56,761 nucleotides of DNA. Source: Patescibacteria group bacterium. Its GTDB lineage: Bacteria; Patescibacteriota; Minisyncoccia; Minisyncoccales; DG-74-3. A program made the translations under genes and the position numbers. Under the pieces are notes generated by a model. The model did no database searches. It was not told the DNA's origin and was given only the letters and a program-made list of their open reading frames with translations. The first letter of the stretch is position 1, and every line of letters starts with the position of its first letter. This document shows positions 2,461-39,024 of the stretch, piece by piece. The stretch is taken from contig JBDRFX010000008.1 in assembly GCA_043818355.1 (NCBI GenBank), positions 1-56,761 on the forward strand, written 5' to 3'.

Positions 2461-3792
2461 ATGGAGTATCTAAAAAAAGTAGATCCTCAGATGAATGAAA
2501 TCTTAGAGAAAGAAACAGAAAGACAGGAGACCACTCTGATGATGATTCCTTCTGAGAATCATACGTCCCAAGCCGTTAAAGAAGTAGTAGGTTCTATTTT
2601 TCAAGATAAATATTGTGAGGGTTATCCATACAAAAGATATTATCAAGGCCAAGAATACTATAATCAGCTAGAAGAGCTTTGTCAGGATAGAGTTAAAAAA
2701 GCTTTTGGGGTTCCTTTTGTAAATGTTCAGCCATTATCTGGTAGTCCGGCTAATTGTGCTGTATATTTTGGTGTTTTAGAGCCAGGAGACAAGATGATGG
2801 GATTAAGACTAGATCAGGGAGGGCATATTACTCATGGGCTGGATATTAATTTTTCTGGTAAGTTTTACGAAAACATTTTTTACAATGTTAATGAAGAGGG
2901 ACAGATAGATTATGACGCTATGGAGGAAATGGCTCTTAAAGAACATCCTAAAATTATTATTGCAGGAATTACTTCCCATCCTATGGCATTAGACTTTGCT
3001 AGATTTTCTCAAATAGCTGAAAAATGTGGGGCATACTTAATGGCAGACATAGCTCATGTTTCGGGATTGATTTTAGCTGGTGTTTACCCAAATCCTGTTC
3101 CATATGTACATATTATTACAACAACAACCCATAAGACTCTAAGAGGGCCCAGAGGAGCTTTAATTATGGTGACAGATAAGGGAATGACTAAAGATCCTGA
3201 TTTGCCTAATAAAATTAATAAAGCAGTTTTTCCTGGCTTACAAGGAGGTCCTCATGAAAATAATATTGCTGGTATAGCGGTTGCTGTTAAAGAAGCAATG
3301 TCTCCTGCATTTAAGGAGTACGGAAAACAAGTAATTAAAAACGCTGCCATTTTAGCTGAAAGATTAAAAGAAAAAGGCGCTACTCTTTGTTCTGGAGGAA
3401 CCAATACACATTTAATAATGATGGACTTAAGAAGTTTTGATATTCTAGGAAATACAGCTGCTGAGGCTCTAGAGTCTTCTGGTATTGTTGTAAATAAAAA
3501 TTGTGTTCCCGATGATTCTAATCCTCCATTCTATCCTTCTGGTTTAAGATTCGGTGCTCCCGGCATAACAAGTAGAGGAATGAAAGAAGAAGAGATGGTG
3601 ATTATTGCTGATTGCATGATTAGGGTTTTGTCAGATATTTCTAGAATTAGAAAAGAAATGAGAGTCACTTTTGACCAAGAGAAAAAACTTGCAACCAGGA
3701 AGCAAATGATTGAAAAATCAGATGTTGTCAAAAAGGTGAGAGAGGAAGTAAGAGATCTTTGTTCAAAATTTCCCTTAAAGAAAGAATACTAG
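2461..3792 (+). CDS. glyA: Serine hydroxymethyltransferase
   Basis: SENHTS, YPYKRYYQG, and TTTTHKTLRGPRG around the PLP-lysine. Confidence 0.95.
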   Translation: MEYLKKVDPQMNEILEKETERQETTLMMIPSENHTSQAVKEVVGSIFQDKYCEGYPYKRYYQGQEYYNQLEELCQDRVKKAFGVPFVNVQPLSGSPANCAVYFGVLEPGDKMMGLRLDQGGHITHGLDINFSGKFYENIFYNVNEEGQIDYDAMEEMALKEHPKIIIAGITSHPMALDFARFSQIAEKCGAYLMADIAHVSGLILAGVYPNPVPYVHIITTTTHKTLRGPRGALIMVTDKGMTKDPDLPNKINKAVFPGLQGGPHENNIAGIAVAVKEAMSPAFKEYGKQVIKNAAILAERLKEKGATLCSGGTNTHLIMMDLRSFDILGNTAAEALESSGIVVNKNCVPDDSNPPFYPSGLRFGAPGITSRGMKEEEMVIIADCMIRVLSDISRIRKEMRVTFDQEKKLATRKQMIEKSDVVKKVREEVRDLCSKFPLKKEY

Positions 3793-29880: not shown

Positions 29881-30573
29881 ATGAAAAAACAAAAAGCTAT
29901 TATGGTCATTGGTTCTCCAGGAGCTGGAAAGGGAACACAAGTTAATTTGTTGTCAGAAAAATTAGGTTTTTATCATTTTAAAACTAGCGCTATAGTGGGA
30001 AGAATTATTGAAGAAGCAGATCCAGGTTCTTTTGTAGAAATTGAAGGTGATAAGTATTATTTTGAAGAGCAGAAGAAATTAAGAGCAGATGGCAAACTAT
30101 GGGACGATGCTTTTGTTACTTATTTTACCAATGAAAAGGTTAAAGAGCTTCATGGGGAGGGTAAAAACATTATTTTTGATGGTTATCCTAGAACCCTATA
30201 TGAAGCAAAACATACAATCCCTATTTTAAAAGATTTATATGGGAAGGATAATGTTGAATTTTTATATATTGAAATTTCAGAGGAAGAGGCTATTTTTAGA
30301 AATACTCACAGGCGTGAATGTGAATTAATGCGCCACCCTGTATTGTATTCTGAAGAAAACTCTAAATTAACTAAATGCCAAATAGATGGTTCAGATTTAG
30401 TAGAAAGGAAAGATGATGATTCAGAAATTATTAAGGTTAGATTGAGAGAATTTAGAGAAAAAACTATGCCCATTCTGAGCGTTGTTGAAGAAGAAAATAT
30501 CAAGATTCATAATATCAATGGTTCTCCTGCTCCAGTTAAGGTTTTTAAGAATGTCCTAAAAGCAATTGAATGA
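29881..30573 (+). CDS. adk: Adenylate kinase (operon-canonical copy; LID without a full Cys4 set)
   Basis: GSPGAGKGTQ, FDGYPRT; position between secY and map. Confidence 0.9.
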   Translation: MKKQKAIMVIGSPGAGKGTQVNLLSEKLGFYHFKTSAIVGRIIEEADPGSFVEIEGDKYYFEEQKKLRADGKLWDDAFVTYFTNEKVKELHGEGKNIIFDGYPRTLYEAKHTIPILKDLYGKDNVEFLYIEISEEEAIFRNTHRRECELMRHPVLYSEENSKLTKCQIDGSDLVERKDDDSEIIKVRLREFREKTMPILSVVEEENIKIHNINGSPAPVKVFKNVLKAIE

Positions 30574-31310
30574 TTCCAATCAAATCAGAAAAAGAAATTG
30601 AGATAATGGCTGAGAACGGAAAAATTTTATCTTCTATTTTAAAAGAGATAAGAGAAAAGGCTGTTATGGGTATTGAAACACAAGAACTAAATAAGATTGC
30701 TGAAGTCCTTATTTCTCAATATGGAACGCCTTCCTTTAAAGGATATGATAATTTTCCTGCCGGTCTTTGTGTTTCTATAAACGAAGAAATAGTTCATGGG
30801 ACTCCCTCTAAGAGAAAGCTTAAAGAAGGAGACATTGTTTCGCTTGATATTGGTCTTTATAGAAATGAATTTCATGTAGATATGGCCACCACTTTTGCCA
30901 TAGGAAGTATTCCACCAGAAGCTCAGAAATTAATTCAAGTTGGAAAAAAATCATTGAAAAGAGGCATTAAGAAGATTAAAGTGGGGAATACTTTTGGAGA
31001 CATTGGAAATACCATTCAGAGATATGTTGAAGATCAGGGTTTTGCGGTAGTGAGAGATTTATGTGGTCATGGGATAGGAAGAAATCTTCACGAGGATCCT
31101 CAAATTTTGAATTATGGAAAAAGACATAAGGGAATGGAAATTCAAGAGGGCATGGTTTTTTGTTTAGAGCCAATGGTTACAGCAGGTAGTTATGAGATTG
31201 AACTTACTAAAGATGGGTCTGGATATAAGACAATAGACAATTCTTTATCGGTTCATTTTGAGCACACTATAGCTGTTACTAAGAATGGGGTTAAGATATT
31301 AACAGAATAA
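30570..31310 (+). CDS. map: Type I methionine aminopeptidase
   Basis: VHG.P, D.G, CGHGIG, and the LEPM...HFEHT metal ligands. Confidence 0.94.
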   Translation: MIPIKSEKEIEIMAENGKILSSILKEIREKAVMGIETQELNKIAEVLISQYGTPSFKGYDNFPAGLCVSINEEIVHGTPSKRKLKEGDIVSLDIGLYRNEFHVDMATTFAIGSIPPEAQKLIQVGKKSLKRGIKKIKVGNTFGDIGNTIQRYVEDQGFAVVRDLCGHGIGRNLHEDPQILNYGKRHKGMEIQEGMVFCLEPMVTAGSYEIELTKDGSGYKTIDNSLSVHFEHTIAVTKNGVKILTE

Positions 31311-31344
31311 AAAGTTCATTAGTTGTTGCTTATTAATTTTGATT

Positions 31345-31373
31345 GGTAGAGAGAAATCTCTGCCAGTTTTGTT
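31345..31373 (+). terminator. Terminator-like hairpin inside the repeat: GGTAGAGA-GAAA-TCTCTGCC followed by AGTTTTGTT
   Basis: 8-bp stem (one G-U pair), GNRA loop, T-rich tail, directly downstream of map. Confidence 0.55.
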
Positions 31374-31390
31374 GTGAGAAGAGAAATTTA

Positions 31391-31399
31391 TGTTAAAAT
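31391..31399 (+). promoter_or_regulatory. Extended -10 element TGTTAAAAT inside the repeat
   Basis: TGn plus TAAAAT. A second identical copy lies 23 nt before the GT2 gene. Confidence 0.35.
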
Positions 31400-31410
31400 T
31401 AAAGAATTAC

Positions 31411-31431
31411 CAACGAGACCCGGCCTCGTTG
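31411..31431. repeat. REP-like palindromic hairpin copy 1: CAACGAG-ACCCGGC-CTCGTTG
   Basis: 7-bp arms are exact reverse complements. Lies between the repeat and the likely ATG of the transposase. Confidence 0.9.
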
Positions 31432-31448
31432 ATTTAAATCATAATCAT

Positions 31449-32168
31449 ATGCCTATAAGAAAAGTACAATTTGCTAATGGAGAATTCTATCATATCACTA
31501 AAAGAGGAATTGAAAAAAGAGAAATTTTTTTAGATGATGAAGATTATTTTCGTTTTGTTAATAGTCTATTAATTTTTAATGATAAAATGTCAGCACCTTG
31601 GGCATCTCGTGGTTTCTGGCGTCAACGAGACCCGGCCTCGTTGTGTACGAGTGAATATAAACCAAAAGTTCCAATAGTGGAAATTCATGCATTTGCTTTA
31701 ATGCCAAATCATTTTCATTTATTGGTGCGACAATTAGTTGATAATGGGATTGTTCTTTTTATGCAAAAGCTCGGTGGTTATTCTTATTATTTTAATAAAA
31801 AATATGAACGAGAGGGAACTTTATTTCAGAATAGATATAAAATTAAAAGAGTGAAATCAGAAGAGCAGCTAGAAAATAATTTTGTTTATATTAATACAAA
31901 TCCAATAAGCATAATTGAATCAGGATGGAAAGAGGGGAAAGTAGAAGATGTCAGAAAAACAATTGAATTTTTAGAAAATAAATATCGATGGTCAAGCTAT
32001 TGGGATTATATAGGTAAGAAAAATTTTCCATCAGTGATCACAAAAGATTTTTTTCTAGAATTTTTTGGAGAAGAAGAAAAGATAAGAGAGAAGATAGAGT
32101 CTTGGATTCTTTACAAATTAGAGTCAGAAGCGTCAACGAGACCCGGCCTCGTTGATTTTGAAGATTAA
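31449..32168 (+). CDS. HUH/Y1 transposase of the IS200/RayT (REP-associated tyrosine transposase) type
   Basis: HUH motif in LMPNHFHLLV, FQNRYK, and the catalytic-Tyr region NNFVYINTNP. ATG 31449 (MPIRKVQF...) is preferred; the track's GTG 31374 lies inside the duplicated repeat. Confidence 0.7.
   Translation: MPIRKVQFANGEFYHITKRGIEKREIFLDDEDYFRFVNSLLIFNDKMSAPWASRGFWRQRDPASLCTSEYKPKVPIVEIHAFALMPNHFHLLVRQLVDNGIVLFMQKLGGYSYYFNKKYEREGTLFQNRYKIKRVKSEEQLENNFVYINTNPISIIESGWKEGKVEDVRKTIEFLENKYRWSSYWDYIGKKNFPSVITKDFFLEFFGEEEKIREKIESWILYKLESEASTRPGLVDFED
31623..31643. repeat. REP-like hairpin copy 2, inside the transposase coding sequence (translated as QRDPASL)
   Basis: Same 21-mer as copy 1; shares the 5' flank GCGT with copy 3. 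Confidence 0.9.
32134..32154. repeat. REP-like hairpin copy 3, encoding the last residues of the transposase ORF (TRPGLVD)
   Basis: Same 21-mer; arms extend to 8 bp (TCAACGAG/CTCGTTGA). Confidence 0.9.
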
Positions 32169-32169
32169 A

Positions 32170-32234
32170 TTTGATTGGTAGAGAGAAATCTCTGCCAGTT
32201 TTGTTGTGAGAAGAGAAATTTATGTTAAAATTAA
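32170..32234 (+). repeat. Right copy of the perfect 65-bp direct repeat, again containing the terminator hairpin (32177-32205) and the extended -10 (32223-32231)
   Basis: Identical to 31338..31402. Confidence 0.95.
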
Positions 32235-32253
32235 TAAATAAATTAAAAAACAT

Positions 32254-32982
32254 ATGAGTAAAATTAAACTTTCGGTTGTAATGCCAGCCTATAATGAAGA
32301 AAAAAGACTTCCTAAAACTTTGAAGGAAGTTGATGAATATCTAAAGACTCAAAATTATGATTATGAGATTTTAGTAGTGGACGATGGATCAAAAGACAAT
32401 ACAGTTGAGATTGTAAAATCCCTTCAGTCAGAAATTAAGAATTTAAAAATTATAAGTTATAAAGTAAATAGAGGAAAGGGTTATGCCGTAAGATTTGGAT
32501 TGCTAGAAGCTCAAGGAGAATATAGATTATTGACAGATGCCGATAATTCAACTTCTTTAGACCAGATTGAAAAAATGTGGCCTGAATTTTATAAAGGATT
32601 TGACGTTGTAATTGGTTCAAGAGATGTGGAGGGAGCTGTTTCAGATCCTCCACAGCCCGCATTCAGGGTTTTTACTGGCGACGTTTTTATGTACTTAAGA
32701 AAAATTATTGTTGGGCTTTGGGAAATAGATGACACGCAATGCGGTTTTAAGGCTTTTAGTGCAAAGTGTGTTAAAGAAGTTTTTCCTAAAGGAAAAATAG
32801 ATAGATTTGCTTTTGATCCTGAAATTTTAATTCTAGCTAAAAGAGCTGGTTTCAAGATTAAAGAGGTTCCAATTTATTGGAAGAATGACCTGGATAGTAA
32901 GGTTAAGTTTAAATCAATGGTGAAGATGTTAATTGATTTATTTAAAATTAGATTAAATTTAATTTCTAGAATTTATGAATAA
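32254..32982 (+). CDS. Family 2 glycosyltransferase (polyprenyl-phosphate sugar transferase-like)
   Basis: VVMPAYNEE, DDGSKDNT, TDADNS, QCGFKAF. Confidence 0.88.
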   Translation: MSKIKLSVVMPAYNEEKRLPKTLKEVDEYLKTQNYDYEILVVDDGSKDNTVEIVKSLQSEIKNLKIISYKVNRGKGYAVRFGLLEAQGEYRLLTDADNSTSLDQIEKMWPEFYKGFDVVIGSRDVEGAVSDPPQPAFRVFTGDVFMYLRKIIVGLWEIDDTQCGFKAFSAKCVKEVFPKGKIDRFAFDPEILILAKRAGFKIKEVPIYWKNDLDSKVKFKSMVKMLIDLFKIRLNLISRIYE

Positions 32983-33997
32983 AAATATTTATTCAGAGTT
33001 AAGATACGATTTAATTTCTAAAGATTGGGTTGTTATAGCAACCTCAAAAGGAAAGAAGCCTCAGGGTTTTAAGTTTAAAAAAATGAAGGTAGAAAAGATT
33101 GCTAAAAAAGATTGTCCTTTTTGCAATATTGAAACACAAAGAAAACCAACCTTAATTTATTCTAAAGGAAAACAATATCCATTAGATAGGGGAATTCCAA
33201 AAGACTGGACTACGATTGTTATACCAAATCTTTTTCCAGTCTTTAAGCCATCAGATTCTCTAGATGAAAGTATAGAGGGGGGTTTGTATAAAAAAATGAA
33301 AGCAGTGGGATTTCAAGAGATAATTGTTTCAAAAGATCACGAAAAATCTTTAGCGCAATTGGGAGTTAAGAGAATTAAAGAATTACTTGATGCATATCAG
33401 CAGAGATATCTAGACTTAATGAATGAGAAGCACGTTAATCATATTTCTGTTTTTATGAATTACGGACTAGGTTCAGGAGCCTCTCAACCCCATCCTCATT
33501 CTCAGATTATTACCACTCCATTGATTGATAAGGATTTAAGAATTTCTTTAATGAATGCTCAAAAGTATTATCAAAAAAATAAAGATTGTGTTTATTGCAA
33601 AATGATAAGATGGGAAAAGAAGGCAAAAGAAAGAGTTATTTTTGAAAACCAGGATTTTTTAGCTCTTTGTCCTTTTGCTTCAAAGTCTTCTTTTCAAATT
33701 ATTATTACTCCCAAAAAACACAAATCTAATTTTGAAGACATTACAGAAAAAGAAAAAGAACAGTTAGCAGAAGCCTTTGAAAAGGCTTTGAAGAAGCTAT
33801 ATAAAGGACTTAATAATCCTCCATATAATATTTATTTACATACTGCTCCTTGTGACGGTAAAAAACATGATGATTATCATTGGCACTGGACTATTATACC
33901 AAGACTGTCTATTTGGGCTGGATTTGAGGCAGGAGTAGGAATGGAGATTTCAACAATCTCGCCAGAAGATGCAGCAAAATTCTTGAGAAAACAATAA
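32975..33997 (+). CDS. Galactose-1-phosphate uridylyltransferase-type HIT-superfamily nucleotidyltransferase
   Basis: N-terminal CPFC, active-site HPHSQII, second half-domain with HWHW. Confidence 0.78.
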   Translation: MNKNIYSELRYDLISKDWVVIATSKGKKPQGFKFKKMKVEKIAKKDCPFCNIETQRKPTLIYSKGKQYPLDRGIPKDWTTIVIPNLFPVFKPSDSLDESIEGGLYKKMKAVGFQEIIVSKDHEKSLAQLGVKRIKELLDAYQQRYLDLMNEKHVNHISVFMNYGLGSGASQPHPHSQIITTPLIDKDLRISLMNAQKYYQKNKDCVYCKMIRWEKKAKERVIFENQDFLALCPFASKSSFQIIITPKKHKSNFEDITEKEKEQLAEAFEKALKKLYKGLNNPPYNIYLHTAPCDGKKHDDYHWHWTIIPRLSIWAGFEAGVGMEISTISPEDAAKFLRKQ

Positions 33998-33998
33998 C

Positions 33999-34748
33999 AT
34001 GAAACCATTAATTGTTGGAAATTGGAAAATGAACATTAACAGCTTGACTGAAATCAAGAAGCTTTTTAATTCTATTAAAAGAAAAGCAAAAGGATTAGAA
34101 AGAAAAGCAGAGATTGTTGTTTGTCCTTCAAGTGCTTATTTATCTAATCTGAAAACACAAAATTCTTCTGTTGTTTTGGGAGCTCAAGATTTGTTTTGGG
34201 AAAACGAGGGTAATTTTACAGGGAACATTTCTCCTTTGATTTTAAAAGAAACAGATTGTAAATATGTTTTAGTGGGTCACTCTGAAAGAAGGAAGCATAA
34301 TAAAGAAACGAATGAAATGATTTCGAAAAAACTTAAAAAGGCCATTGATAATGGATTTAAGGTTATTCTCTGTGTTGGAGAAACAGCAACAGAAAAGAAA
34401 ACAGGACAAGCTTTGAGAGTTTTGAATACTCAAGTTTCAAAAGCATTGAATAGAATTGACGATAAAGAAATTAAGAATGTGATTATTGCTTATGAACCAG
34501 TTTGGGCAGTGGGCACAGGAAAGCCATGTGAATCAAGTGTGGTTTTAACTCAGAATCTATTAATTAGAAACATGATTAAGAAAAGGTATTCTTCTAAAAT
34601 AGCTAAGGATTTTAAGATTCTTTATGGTGGTAGTGTGAATTCAGATAATGCTAAAGAGTATATTGATGTAGCTAGAACACAGGGATTATTAATAGGAGAG
34701 GCTTCATTAAATTCTCAAGAGTTTATTAAAATAATTAAAAACATATGA
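33999..34748 (+). CDS. tpiA: Triosephosphate isomerase
   Basis: GNWKMN, GHSERR, AYEPVWAVGTG. Confidence 0.94.
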   Translation: MKPLIVGNWKMNINSLTEIKKLFNSIKRKAKGLERKAEIVVCPSSAYLSNLKTQNSSVVLGAQDLFWENEGNFTGNISPLILKETDCKYVLVGHSERRKHNKETNEMISKKLKKAIDNGFKVILCVGETATEKKTGQALRVLNTQVSKALNRIDDKEIKNVIIAYEPVWAVGTGKPCESSVVLTQNLLIRNMIKKRYSSKIAKDFKILYGGSVNSDNAKEYIDVARTQGLLIGEASLNSQEFIKIIKNI

Positions 34749-35770
34749 GGAGGAAGAAGGTTCTTGTTGGGATGTCTGGGGGCGTAGACAGCTCTGTATC
34801 AGCTTTTCTATTGAAAAAGGATGGATATGACGTGTCTGGTGTTTTTATGAGACTCGCTAACTCTAAGAAGTCTTTTAATGCTGAAAAAGAAGCCAGGGGA
34901 GTAGCTAAAAAACTAGGAGTTCCTTTTGTTATTTTTGATTTATCTAAAGAGTTTAAGAAAATTGTTATTGATTATTTTATAGATAGTTATGGACTTGGTA
35001 TTACTCCCAATCCTTGTGTTTTATGTAATAAAGAAATTAAGTTTGGCTTATTGTTGAGAAAGGCCATGAGTTTGGGAGCTGATTATTTAGCCACTGGCCA
35101 CTATGTAATAAAACAGAGAAGGGGGAGTGGATATAAATTATTTAAGTCTAAAGATAGCAAGAAAGATCAAAGCTATTTTTTATGGAGATTAAATCAAAAG
35201 CAATTAAGCAAGGTTTTGTTTCCTGTGGGAGGTTTAATCAAAGAAAGAGTTAGGGAAATAGCTAGAAAAAATGATTTTTTAAAAAAAGTTGGTAAAGAAT
35301 CAGAAGATATTTGTTTTATTGAAAAAGATATTGTTGGATTTTTAAAAGATAGTTTAAAAATGAAAGAGGGGGATATTATTAATGAAAAAAATGAAAAGAT
35401 TGGCAGGCATTCAGGTTTATTTATTTATACTATTGGGCAAAGAAAAAATATTCGTGTTTCAAGTTCTAAGCCATATTATGTGAGGAAGATAGATATTAAG
35501 AAAAACATTCTTTTTGTCACTTCTGACGAAAAAGATTTATATGCAAAAAAGATAAAAGTTAAAAACATGAATTGGCTTTCTAAAAATACCAAATTTCCTA
35601 TTAAGGTTTTAGCAAAGACAAGATATGGCCATGAAGGAGCCAGAGCTGTTGTTGATGGAAATATGATTGAGTTTGTGAAAGCACAAAGAGCCATAACCCC
35701 AGGCCAGTCAATTGTTTTCTATAAAGGCCAAGAACTTTTGGGTGGTGGCATTATATCGGAGATAAAATAA
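34745..35770 (+). CDS. mnmA: tRNA 2-thiouridine(34) synthase
   Basis: PP-loop GMSGGVDSSV, NPCV.CN, DQSYFL. Confidence 0.93.
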   Translation: MRRKKVLVGMSGGVDSSVSAFLLKKDGYDVSGVFMRLANSKKSFNAEKEARGVAKKLGVPFVIFDLSKEFKKIVIDYFIDSYGLGITPNPCVLCNKEIKFGLLLRKAMSLGADYLATGHYVIKQRRGSGYKLFKSKDSKKDQSYFLWRLNQKQLSKVLFPVGGLIKERVREIARKNDFLKKVGKESEDICFIEKDIVGFLKDSLKMKEGDIINEKNEKIGRHSGLFIYTIGQRKNIRVSSSKPYYVRKIDIKKNILFVTSDEKDLYAKKIKVKNMNWLSKNTKFPIKVLAKTRYGHEGARAVVDGNMIEFVKAQRAITPGQSIVFYKGQELLGGGIISEIK

Positions 35771-35808
35771 TTTTAATAATTTTAGTTTTTCTGATAAAAT
35801 CAAAAAAC

Positions 35809-37485
35809 ATGAAAGCAGTAGAAATAAGAGAAAAATTTTTAAAGTTTTTCGAAAAAAACGGACACACCATAGTTCTGTCTTCTTCGCTTATTCCGACTGA
35901 TCCCAGCGTTTTATTAACAACTGCTGGAATGCAACAGTTTAAGGATTATTTTTTAGGAAAACTTTCTCCATATGGAAACAGAGTAACTTCTTGTCAAAAA
36001 TCCTTTAGAACCTCTGACATTGAAGAAGTGGGAGATGAGAGACATCTAACTTTTTTTGAAATGATCGGAAATTTTAGTTTTGGAGATTATTTTAAAGAAG
36101 AAACTATTAAACTGGCATGGGATTTTATTTTTAATGAATTAAACCTTGATTTAGAAGAATGCTATTTTACTGTTTTTGAAGGAGATGACGAAGTTCCTTT
36201 TGATAAAGAATCATTTGATGTTTTAAAGAAATTAGGTGTTCCCGAAGAAAAAATTAAAAAAATGCCTAGGGGAGAAAATTTTTGGGGCCCCACTGGAGCG
36301 GAAGGTCCTTGCGGTCCTACTGTAGAAATTTACTGTAGAGATTTAGAAATTTGGAATTTAGTGTTCAATGAGTATTTTATGGATAAGGATAATAAATTAA
36401 CTCCTTTAAAACAAAGAGGCGTTGATACAGGAGCTGGACTAGAAAGAGTTGCTCTTATCATGCAAAGAAAAGAATCAGTTTTTGAAACAGACTTGTTCGA
36501 ACCCATAATGAGTCAGATTGTTGTTGGCAGTGAAGTTCAGAAAAGAATTATTGCAGATCATATTAAAAGTTCTGTGTTTTTAATTTCTGATGGAGTCTTG
36601 CCTTCTAATAAAGAAAGGGGATATATTTTAAGAAGATTAATTAGAAGAATGGTGGGAATTGAAAAATATTTGGAAATACCTACTAAATTTATTTTAAGTT
36701 TAGTTCCTTCTGTGTTGAGTATTTATAAAGATGTTTATCCTGAACTAAAAGAAGAAATAATTGTTAGCGTTCTTCAAGAAGAGATAGAAAAATTTGAACA
36801 AACTTTAGAAAAGGGATTAAAGCAATTTGAAAAAATTATTGAAAAAGGAGATATATCTGGAATTGATGCTTTTCATCTTTATGATACATATGGGTTTCCA
36901 CTGGATCTCACTATTGAATTAGCTCAAGAAAAGAATTTGAAAGTTGATAAAACGGGCTTTGAAAATGCTTTTGAAAAGCATCAAGAAATTTCTAGGGCTG
37001 GAGTAGAGAAGAAATTTGGAGGAGTTGGAAAAGGAGTCGGAGAAGAAGAAGCTAAATTACATACAGCCACTCACTTATTGCATCAAGCATTAAGAACTAT
37101 TTTGGGTGACCATATTCAGCAAATGGGATCTGATATTAATTCTGAAAGACTAAGATTTGATTTTTCTCATTCTGCGAAATTAACTGAAGAAGAAATTAAA
37201 AAAGTTGAAAATTTAATTAATCAAAAAATTGAAGAAGATTTAATTGTTGAAATGAAAGAAATGTTATACAAAGACGCAGTGAATGAAGGAGCATTAGTTT
37301 TCTTTAAAAATAAATATCCTGAAAAAGTTAATGTTTATTCTATTGGTGATTTTTCTAAAGAAATTTGTGGAGGTCCTCACGTTAAGAGGCTTTCTGAGTT
37401 GGGAAAATTTAAGATTATTAAAGAAGAATCTTCTTCCGCTGGAGTTAGAAGGATTAAGGCTCTTTTGGAACAATCGTCTTTCTGA
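35809..37485 (+). CDS. alaS: Alanine--tRNA ligase, shortened form (558 aa)
   Basis: N-terminal FL.FF...GH, TTAGMQQFK, FFEMIGNFSFGDYFK, editing-domain HTATHLLHQALR and CGGPHV. It ends soon after, with no C-Ala region. Confidence 0.88.
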   Translation: MKAVEIREKFLKFFEKNGHTIVLSSSLIPTDPSVLLTTAGMQQFKDYFLGKLSPYGNRVTSCQKSFRTSDIEEVGDERHLTFFEMIGNFSFGDYFKEETIKLAWDFIFNELNLDLEECYFTVFEGDDEVPFDKESFDVLKKLGVPEEKIKKMPRGENFWGPTGAEGPCGPTVEIYCRDLEIWNLVFNEYFMDKDNKLTPLKQRGVDTGAGLERVALIMQRKESVFETDLFEPIMSQIVVGSEVQKRIIADHIKSSVFLISDGVLPSNKERGYILRRLIRRMVGIEKYLEIPTKFILSLVPSVLSIYKDVYPELKEEIIVSVLQEEIEKFEQTLEKGLKQFEKIIEKGDISGIDAFHLYDTYGFPLDLTIELAQEKNLKVDKTGFENAFEKHQEISRAGVEKKFGGVGKGVGEEEAKLHTATHLLHQALRTILGDHIQQMGSDINSERLRFDFSHSAKLTEEEIKKVENLINQKIEEDLIVEMKEMLYKDAVNEGALVFFKNKYPEKVNVYSIGDFSKEICGGPHVKRLSELGKFKIIKEESSSAGVRRIKALLEQSSF

Positions 37486-37497
37486 TATAATACTTCA

Positions 37498-38763
37498 ATG
37501 GTAAAAAAACTCATAGATATTTTTCCCCCAGAGGAAATAGAAGATAAAAAATTAATCACTACAGAAGAAATTCTTCTGGAAGAAAAGATACCAGGGATTT
37601 CTTTGGATGTTCCTAAAATTTCTCTTCCCAACAAGAAACGTTTATTTTTTGTATTAGTGGCAGTTTTTTCTTTTTTTGGATTATTATCTTTATCTAAAGC
37701 CAAAATTGAAATTTATCCTAAAACTGAAATCGTAGATTTTTCTACCAGTTTAAAAGTAAACGAAAAAACAAAAGAAATAAATTTATCTTCTTTATCAATT
37801 CCAGGACAGGTCTTGGAAAATACGAAAATTATTACAGAAGAATTTAGTTCAACCGGCAAAACTATCAAAGAAGGAAAAGCAACAGGTATTATTCGTGTGT
37901 ATAATTCTTATTCAGCAGAACCTCAATCTCTTATTGCTACCACTAGATTTGTTTCTAAAGATGGGAAAGTGTTTAGAACGCCCAAAAAGGTAACTATTCC
38001 AGGTCAAAAAATTGATAAAGGAGAAAAAATACCAGGTTTTTTAGATGTTGAAGTAGAGGCTGAAGAGACTGGAGAAGATTATAATATAGGAACGTCTACG
38101 TTCTCTATTCCTGGACTTGCAGGTGGTCCCAAGTATACTTATTTTTATGGTAAGTCTTTTCAATCAATGTCTGGAGGGCATAAACAGGAAACAAATCAAA
38201 TTAGTCAAGATGATTTAGATAATGCTAAGAATATTCTTGAAAAAAAATCCAAAGAAGATTGTAAGACAGAACTAGAGGGAATGGTTTTGGTGGGATATGT
38301 TTTATTGCCCGAAACACTTGAAGTCAAAGTAGTTGATTCGGGATCTATTTCTAAAGCAGGACAAATATCAGATAATTTTATTTTTAGAGCGAGAGCTGAA
38401 TGCAAAACAATTGTTTTTAAAAAAGAGGATGCTAATATTTTTACAGATCAATACATTTCTTCTAAAATTGAAGAAGATAAAAAAGTATATGGACCAAGCA
38501 TTGAAATAGTTTATGACTTAGGGGTAATAGATTTTGAATTGGGTAGTGCTCAATTCGTTATAGACACTAAAGCTAAAATATATTCTGATATTAATGAAGA
38601 GGTTTTGAAAATAGCTCTCAAGGGGAAAACTTTTAATGAGGCAAGGTTTTATTTAATGGGTAACGATAATATAGAGGAAGCAACAGTAGAATTTTCACCT
38701 TTTTGGGTAAGCAAAGTGCCTAAGGATGACAAAAATATTGAAATCAAGTTCATCATTGACTAA
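37498..38763 (+). CDS. Hypothetical membrane-anchored, probably extracytoplasmic 421-aa protein
   Basis: Single TM (FFVLVAVFSFFGLLSL) after an acidic N-terminus. Beta-rich remainder. I cannot assign a family by eye. Confidence 0.5.
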   Translation: MVKKLIDIFPPEEIEDKKLITTEEILLEEKIPGISLDVPKISLPNKKRLFFVLVAVFSFFGLLSLSKAKIEIYPKTEIVDFSTSLKVNEKTKEINLSSLSIPGQVLENTKIITEEFSSTGKTIKEGKATGIIRVYNSYSAEPQSLIATTRFVSKDGKVFRTPKKVTIPGQKIDKGEKIPGFLDVEVEAEETGEDYNIGTSTFSIPGLAGGPKYTYFYGKSFQSMSGGHKQETNQISQDDLDNAKNILEKKSKEDCKTELEGMVLVGYVLLPETLEVKVVDSGSISKAGQISDNFIFRARAECKTIVFKKEDANIFTDQYISSKIEEDKKVYGPSIEIVYDLGVIDFELGSAQFVIDTKAKIYSDINEEVLKIALKGKTFNEARFYLMGNDNIEEATVEFSPFWVSKVPKDDKNIEIKFIID

Positions 38764-38802
38764 TTTCAAAATATTTGTTAGCCTTGAAATATTAAATTAT
38801 CA

Positions 38803-39024
38803 ATGAAACAAAACATTTTAAGGAAACAAGGTATCGTTTTGGAATCACTGCCAAATACTCTTTTTCGTGTCAAGCTGGAAGATGGTAAGGAGGTTTTAGC
38901 TCATTTAGCTGGCAAATTAAGAGTTTTTAGAATAAAGATTTTGATTGGTGACGAAGTTACAGTTGAAATGACTCCCTATGACGTGAATAGGGGAAGAATA
39001 GTTTATAGAGGTAAAAAAAGATAA
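38803..39024 (+). CDS. infA: Translation initiation factor IF-1
   Basis: G.V.E.LPN..FRV.LE.G..VLAH..GK.R..RI.I..GD.V.VE..PYD...GRI.YR. Confidence 0.95.

Follow-up and report, generated by a model that had tools for sequence, protein, structure and literature searches.

The single-strand transposases of the Y1/HUH type are the textbook example of seamless insertion. Elements of the IS200/IS605 group prefer the lagging-strand template (PMC5027513), and RAYT genes are described with two flanking inverted REPs (PMC2817692). Target duplications of a long and variable size (8-514 bp reported, with no known mechanism) have been described solely for the IS1634/IS1549 group of unrelated DDE elements (PMC2266710). 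In this work we analyzed a 56,761-nt stretch of DNA of an uncultured Patescibacteria-type bacterium (contig JBDRFX010000008.1; hereafter, the window), in which a transposase-like gene of the Y1/HUH type is located between the housekeeping genes map and GT2 and is enclosed by two copies of an exact 65-nt direct repeat. The locus is an exception to seamless insertion, provided with an empty-site control and with 65 identical duplicated target bases, and it represents a genuine and well-controlled, although isolated, structural variation on a known type of element.

Duplicated map/GT2 spacer and empty sites in related genomes

Positions 31338-31402 and 32170-32234 of the window are identical over 65 nt with a period of 832, as was already claimed in the initial annotation, which had been made from the sequence alone; none of 100 shuffles of the window contained such a repeat pair. 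The similarity extends beyond the 65-mer to 31332-31407 and 32164-32239 (76 nt with 96% identity; 71 nt with 98.6% identity by blastn), and this is the sole long high-identity direct repeat within the 56.7-kb window.

The junction was compared with that in four contigs representing three related lineages (L095/L096, L097 and L098). The closest relatives of the GT2 protein, P0122, P0123 and P0124, share with it 81, 78 and 75% identity, respectively, and the contigs of the relatives keep the gene order adk-map-GT2-GalT-tpiA-mnmA(-alaS), like the window. There, GT2 comes immediately after map without a Y1 gene, and the spacers between the two genes measure 99, 64 and 177 nt; the hairpin of the window unit (see below) is absent from these empty-site loci. 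Their spacers contain a single homolog of the segment that is repeated in the window, consisting of a terminator hairpin, GTTTTGTTGT(G/T)AG and ATTTATG(T/C)TAAAA, the promoter-like block continuing as TAAAATTAAAGAAT in L095, L096 and L098. The window segment is 85% identical to the spacer of L095 and 80% identical to that of L098, being conserved comparably to the flanking genes (72-81%), and the 3' end of its left copy, AAAGAAT, matches the single-copy spacers of the relatives. When one 832-nt period is subtracted from the window, a map/GT2 spacer of 111 nt is left, in line with the relatives.

Since the relatives have map and GT2 adjacent, with one spacer copy and no hairpin, a hairpin-to-hairpin unit of ~756 bp has been inserted here, relative to these genomes, with duplication of the native terminator/promoter spacer. 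The repeat itself is duplicated host spacer and not DNA of the element, because it is homologous to the single-copy spacer of the relatives at gene-like identity. The proposal of the initial annotation that an ancestral map-spacer-GT2 junction was duplicated on arrival of the unit is thus supported by the empty sites found in all three lineages. We rejected the 65-mer as a dispersed repeat: just two copies occur in the window, and they are homologous to the single spacer of the relatives. The main features of the locus are as follows.

31332..31407, no strand assigned: left-hand repeat of the map/GT2 spacer, with the exact 65-mer at 31338-31402; it shares 80-85% identity with the one spacer copy of L095 and L098
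31408..32163, + strand: Y1 unit of ~756 bp running from hairpin to hairpin, an insertion relative to related genomes, which lack it (empty sites in L095-L098; boundary from comparison of L100 with L101, see below)
31446..32168, + strand: intact Y1/HUH RAYT-like open reading frame of 240 amino acids with HUH residues H89/H91 and tyrosine motif Y148-x3-N152-P153 (Pfam, homolog alignment, model)
32164..32239, no strand assigned: right-hand repeat of the spacer, with the exact 65-mer at 32170-32234; it contributes the Y1 stop codon

Hairpins and junctions of the unit

Three identical GC-rich hairpins, all on the + strand, were found in the unit; they had passed unnoticed in the initial annotation.

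31411..31431, + strand: left-end hairpin CAACGAGACCCGGCCTCGTTG with a 7-bp stem and a 7-nt loop, 35 nt before the ATG
31623..31643, + strand: internal copy of hairpin CAACGAGACCCGGCCTCGTTG, in frame, encoding QRDPASL (a low-confidence loop of the protein model)
32134..32154, + strand: right-end hairpin CAACGAGACCCGGCCTCGTTG, encoding the C-terminal TRPGLV and followed by a 9-nt tail, ATTTTGAAG

The premise of the initial annotation that long direct repeats stand here instead of REP-type hairpins is not supported by this finding: both are present, the hairpins, which are typical of the family, lying immediately inside the repeats. On their inner sides both repeat copies border on the ends of the element, with 3 nt separating the left copy from the left hairpin and 9 nt separating the right hairpin from the right copy. 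At the right junction, GAAG/ATTAA (the slash marks the joint), there is no microhomology to the left context, GCTT/ATTAA, and the right-end tail passes into the right repeat copy with no post-target remnant in between.

No further copy of the hairpin occurs in the window, even with up to 3 mismatches, and no dispersed copies of the cognate hairpin were found in the 3-4 kb flanks of the relatives. The unit carries subterminal hairpins at both ends on one strand (31411-31431 and 32134-32154, +), as elements of the IS200 type do, and the dispersed REP/REPIN copies characteristic of RAYTs are absent from the 56.7-kb window, which is part of the genome only. Both flanking hairpins of the window have the same orientation; direct and inverted arrangements occur among relatives. 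The GC content of the unit (~31-32%) equals that of the surroundings and gives no compositional sign of foreign origin. As the GC skew of the + strand is positive, the hairpin-bearing strand is probably the lagging-strand template.

The Y1/HUH protein

All homologs begin with MPxRK at the position of ATG 31446, and for this reason the protein was taken to start there, and not at GTG 31374, and to comprise 240 amino acids; its stop codon TAA (32166-32168) lies inside the right repeat copy. Residues 78-151 match the Pfam family PF01797 (Y1_Tnp) with 31.7 bits against a gathering score of 23 (E 1.9e-7), and the sequence contains the motifs NHFHLL and YINTNP. Among 48 homologs H89, H91, Y148 and N152 do not vary, and P153 hardly does. 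In the AlphaFold2 model (predicted local distance difference test score 87.6, predicted template modeling score 0.86) Y148 lies in the helix 139-156. The best Foldseek match in PDB was 4ER8, the E. coli RAYT-REP complex (YafM; E 7e-6), followed by the TnpA proteins of ISDra2, IS200 and IS608, the top matches all having a probability of 1.00; a sequence-profile search of PDB with the same protein gave no match, so that the fold search alone succeeded. The score with the NCBIfam RAYT equivalog NF047646 was 37.9 bits, below the cut-off of 80. Considering the best fold match to 4ER8 together with this sub-cut-off score, the protein is a Y1/HUH enzyme closest to RAYTs, being neither a canonical RAYT nor an IS200 TnpA. 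The Pfam match, the RAYT profile score and the fold match are in agreement with the earlier description of the gene as Y1/HUH and RAYT-like. The protein is the sole open reading frame of the unit, which contains no tyrosine or serine site-specific recombinase. In the databases 2946 proteins match it at E <= 1e-5, and those with a named source all come from Parcubacteria/Patescibacteria.

Transcription signals and neighboring genes

Each repeat copy carries terminator-like and promoter-like signals, and in this respect signal and fold analysis upheld the initial annotation.

31341..31368, + strand: terminator-like hairpin (stem of 12 pairs capped by GAAA, T-rich tail behind it), presumably terminating map (fold; hairpin kept in relatives)
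31372..31399, + strand: promoter-like TTGTGA-16-TG-n-TAAAAT, now facing the Y1 gene (signal scan; block conserved in relatives)
32173..32200, + strand: terminator-like hairpin, now behind the Y1 open reading frame
32204..32231, + strand: promoter-like site facing GT2

The RNA fold of the terminator-like hairpin has an energy of -16.8 kcal/mol (z = -4.45). The block ATTTATGnTAAA(A/C)T across the -10 hexamer is conserved in all relatives, and each hexamer of the promoter-like site differs at one position only. The neighboring genes are the following.

30570..31310, + strand: map (methionine aminopeptidase), upstream neighbor (Pfam Peptidase_M24, E 2.5e-47)
32254..32982, + strand: GT2 glycosyltransferase, heading the downstream GT2-GalT-tpiA-mnmA-alaS block (profile match; synteny with relatives)

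The GT2 gene does adjoin the right copy, as was reported previously, at a distance of 19 nt from the end of the 65-mer to its ATG (32254), not 23 nt. In many bacteria infA lies directly 3' of map. Here an infA gene (eIF-1a family) is located ~6.5 kb downstream of map, beyond a GT2-GalT-tpiA-mnmA-alaS-GlxA-like block (window 32254-38900; L083), and the block between map and infA is also conserved in the relatives L095-L098.

The arrangement in independent samples

Logan assemblies of three other runs, apparently built with k = 31 as judged from contig overlaps, contain proteins identical to map, GT2 and GalT of the window, so that the same locus could be followed in three independent samples. 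The map gene is found on contigs L001 and L002. L002 stops 30 nt into the exact repeat, and L083 and L084 begin 30 nt before the repeat end. Because the contigs break at k-1 (30 nt) at the repeat, the latter is a real node with two entries and two exits in the reads, and both novel junctions exist in independent samples. L001 (SRR2544004) crosses the entire 65-mer and ends with the final base of the latter (window position 31402). This stop fits a fork without a merge, and empty and filled alleles might therefore coexist in the SRR2544004 sample. The Y1 protein itself, looked up as the 240-amino-acid form, the 264-amino-acid M-start form and the V-start form, is not on record in the Logan assemblies with the identical neighbors.

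Hairpins and flanks in the protein family

The survey of the family covered 80 GTDB loci, 59 JGI metagenome loci, 10 places of the homolog P0016 and two ~905-nt Logan contigs; the latter two proved not to be loops. In 59 of the 96 non-redundant complete loci a hairpin 15-134 nt upstream of the start is accompanied by a matching one 640-820 nt downstream, and the spacing in the window (-35, +688) is typical of the family. The hairpin sequence varies by lineage. About half of the flanked loci (30 of 59) have a copy of the same hairpin inside the open reading frame, in 27 of these 30 at +158 to +190 (+177 in the window). The internal copy tracks the flanking hairpin of its lineage (...GGCCTCG..., ...GGACTCG..., ...CCCAACC..., CAACGAGGTCCGACCTCGTTG, TACAAGGTTCAACCTTGTA, ATCGGGGACAGTCCCCGAT and others), so that, judged from the sequences, the three sites look like they are in concerted evolution. 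Loci with an internal hairpin include L100, L110, L111, L116, L122, L124, L003, L015, L021, L026 and L061. Neither such a three-hairpin architecture with a co-varying hairpin within the reading frame nor a large RAYT-like family of Patescibacteria was found described in the RAYT/REP papers checked.

The boundaries of the unit were placed a few nucleotides outside the hairpins because of the loci L100 (2967-3756) and L101 (2085-2874), which share a 790-nt hairpin-to-hairpin unit of 99.2% identity with unrelated right flanks; their left flanks are 92.5% identical. This pair may be read as evidence either for transfer at the level of the unit or for a rearrangement that broke precisely at the right hairpin.

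Flanking repeats were sought within 800 nt on each side of every locus, in direct and inverted orientation, as matches of 28 nt or more. Except in L144 and L118, the matches at the other loci were hairpins, hairpin doublets or end palindromes. The 110-nt inverted match of L144 is distant from the gene; it was not inspected and stands outside the palindrome classification. Flanking duplication as a behavior of the whole family was rejected: only the window shows a host-derived repeat. As none of about 100 family loci besides it does so, the spacer duplication is a single event and no general mode of the family.

Several other arrangements were observed at the ends of family members. In L118 a 33-nt bidirectional terminator (AAACAAAAAAGCCC-GAAA/TTTC-GGGCTTTTTTGTTT) is found twice, once on each side of the unit, in inverted orientation (2062-2094 and 3085-3117). 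This locus is the nearest parallel to the window, with the sole other host-type signal repeated around a family member. A 116-nt direct repeat of 92% identity flanks the gene in L122 (2856-2970 and 3698-3813) and consists of two opposed hairpins plus a spacer, so that each end has a REPIN-like doublet. Beside the flanking hairpins of L101 (2020-2100, 2860-2900), L118 (2140-2200, 2970-3050) and also L115, L121, L123 and L125, a hairpin half-site with a few flanking bases recurs in stuttered, incomplete tandem copies (CATAAACAACGAGA repeated, CTCGTAGAG repeated), which suggests that the element ends are prone to local duplication. The homolog P0016 (66% identical; L085-L094, L102-L106) occupies one fixed site in a type IV pilus cluster, between a pilin-like gene and a prepilin peptidase, in every contig read, and has four copies of the same hairpin core; it has the appearance of a resident gene present in one copy rather than of an active insertion sequence.

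The family-level three-hairpin architecture may be a more general result than the duplication. The survey gives a testable picture of a large Patescibacteria-wide RAYT-like family (2946 matches) with a hairpin-reading frame-hairpin layout, an in-frame third hairpin and stutters, which bears on how RAYT-type enzymes recognize and maintain DNA sites in very small genomes.

Origin of the spacer duplication

The explanation that we favor, giving it an even chance of being correct, is that the ~756-bp hairpin-Y1-hairpin mobile-type unit was inserted into the 111-nt map/GT2 spacer and that the same event duplicated ~71-76 bp of this spacer. The mechanism is proposed more tentatively, with somewhat less than an even chance, as insertion coupled to double cleavage of the target and repair. 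The Y1 enzyme would connect each end of the element with a different target position, the two positions being separated by 76 nt and situated either on opposite strands or, at a replication fork, on the two strands of like sense, and fill-in or resolution would produce a long target duplication instead of the seamless single-site single-strand insertion that is normal for the family. A joint at the cleavage sites of the element is favored because the inner edges of the repeats coincide with the element ends, the joint lacks microhomology and no target remnant is left. A template switch at the right junction through the microhomology ATTTTGA, shared by the right-end tail and the left copy, was rejected, since the actual joint GAAG/ATTAA does not use it. 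An ordinary insertion at this place would sever the GT2-GalT-tpiA-mnmA-alaS block from its promoter; with the duplication, map would retain its terminator, GT2 would retain its promoter, and the Y1 gene would gain both a promoter and a terminator. As the duplication preserves the signals of both neighbors, selection probably explains its retention.

A number of facts weigh against insertion with concomitant duplication. We know of no Y1, IS200 or RAYT element that makes target duplications. A target motif common to the two proposed cleavage positions was not identified. The window has one copy of the unit, no other is known, and the databases contain no homolog of the Y1 protein with more than 71% identity (the best ones share 68-71%), so that current mobility is not supported. 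The empty sites come from other species-level lineages and not from strains of this genome, and the Logan graphs fit an integrated copy and an empty site plus an 832-bp circle equally well. None of the other family loci (about 100, non-redundant) has a host-derived flanking repeat, and for this reason the event may not have been catalyzed by the element. Finally, the canonical peel-and-paste pathway is precise and single-stranded (PMC5027513).

The same equality of the graphs of independent samples speaks for a Campbell-type integration, as suggested in the initial annotation with its circular intermediate, in which an 832-bp circle consisting of the Y1 unit and a spacer copy would recombine with the chromosomal spacer over 65-76 nt by means of the host RecA and not of the Y1 enzyme, so that a spacer copy would come to lie on either side in an att-like manner. 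In this case the repeat edges match the unit ends by construction. The three mismatches between the copies (31337, 32235-32236) are chimeric, the left copy being relative-like at its 3' edge (AAAGAAT) and the right one at its 5' edge (TTAAAT), as one crossover between two alleles would leave them; however, mismatches at the edges are equally expected when a repeat is defined by extension until its similarity decays. The passage of L001 across the whole repeat before the fork could mean coexisting empty alleles. At the same time, no circle junction was seen, and in a canonical Y1 circle the right and left ends meet directly, without host DNA (PMC5027513). The problem is also only moved one step back, as the first joining of the right end to the left end through host spacer stays unexplained. 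On balance we consider this course of events unlikely.

Another possibility is a series of unrelated events followed by selection, either (a) a tandem duplication of the spacer with subsequent insertion exactly at the junction or (b) an insertion, an 832-bp tandem duplication and a precise excision of the distal unit that restored the promoter-GT2 adjacency. Tandem duplications are frequent in bacteria, strong selection to rejoin the conserved promoter with the GT2 operon is to be expected, and the hairpin-adjacent stutters in relatives indicate duplication-prone ends. The excision by the Y1 family is precise (PMC5027513). Nevertheless, both versions need the coincidence of a duplication endpoint falling exactly on the element end, and they require two or three events versus one; the repeats are still identical at 65 of 65 positions, and the right junction shows neither microhomology nor a post-target remnant before the right copy. 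The latter absence also disfavors a tandem duplication with a random endpoint followed by excision. We therefore regard such a series as rather improbable. Still more doubtful in our opinion is that the 832-bp segment (the Y1 unit plus one spacer copy) acts as a cassette that would loop out and re-integrate via the captured 65-76-nt spacer, by an att-like, regulation-preserving route possibly started by Y1 cleavage at the hairpins, with the hairpin in the reading frame possibly being a third functional site. An assembly artefact, i.e., a contig threaded once through a graph loop with no molecule having the order map-65-Y1-65-GT2, is the least probable and may nearly be dismissed: although the 65-nt repeat exceeds k of many assemblers and no record of the Y1 protein exists for the Logan assemblies holding identical map, GT2 and GalT, both novel junctions must be in the reads for such a graph to arise, the contigs break exactly at the repeat boundaries in three independent samples, ordinary 100-150-nt reads would span 65 nt, and the sole alternative, an 832-bp circle or tandem array, implies the same biology.

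Taken together, the locus means either that Y1 elements can occasionally resolve insertion differently or that host recombination can rescue a harmful, promoter-severing insertion.

Comparison with known systems

Integrative elements with an att site that restores the target they interrupt, such as tRNA-gene islands, leave direct repeats of tens of bases and keep the neighboring functions intact, as is the case in the window. Unlike them, the window unit has no tyrosine or serine integrase, and its repeat is host spacer and not an element-borne att. With the IS1634/IS1549 group the locus shares an insertion flanked by an unusually long direct target duplication. The enzymes of that group, however, are unrelated DDE transposases with double-strand chemistry, and long repeats are the rule there, whereas the window is a single case in a family otherwise devoid of them.

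Among RAYT/TnpA-REP proteins the E. coli YafM (4ER8) is the best structural match, with the same HUH and single-tyrosine (Y-x3-N-P) motifs. The window gene resembles RAYTs also in being bracketed by cognate GC-rich hairpins, in occurring apparently in one copy per locus and in the fixed site seen in at least one relative (P0016). It differs from RAYTs, for which flanking inverted REPs are described (PMC2817692), in the direct orientation of its flanking hairpins. Further differences are the score below the NCBIfam equivalog cut-off, the length of 240 amino acids with a C-terminal extension of ~90 amino acids, the absence of dispersed REP copies within 56.7 kb, the third hairpin copy inside the reading frame and the presence or absence of the unit between related genomes.

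In IS608 the right cleavage site is located ~10 nt 3' of the hairpin, similarly to the right end of the window unit, 9 nt past its hairpin; the left end of IS608 lies ~19 nt from the hairpin, unlike that of the window unit, which is at most 8 nt away. The IS200/IS605 elements insert without target duplication, whereas the window unit has one of 71-76 bp; its protein is longer and has a RAYT-like tyrosine motif, and the unit occurs in one copy in the window. In other respects the likeness to this group (IS608 and ISDra2 TnpA) is considerable: the window protein has the Pfam Y1_Tnp domain and the same fold, the unit of ~0.75 kb comprises a single open reading frame and a subterminal hairpin at each end, both hairpins being on one strand, and its orientation is consistent with the lagging-strand template preferred by these elements (PMC5027513).

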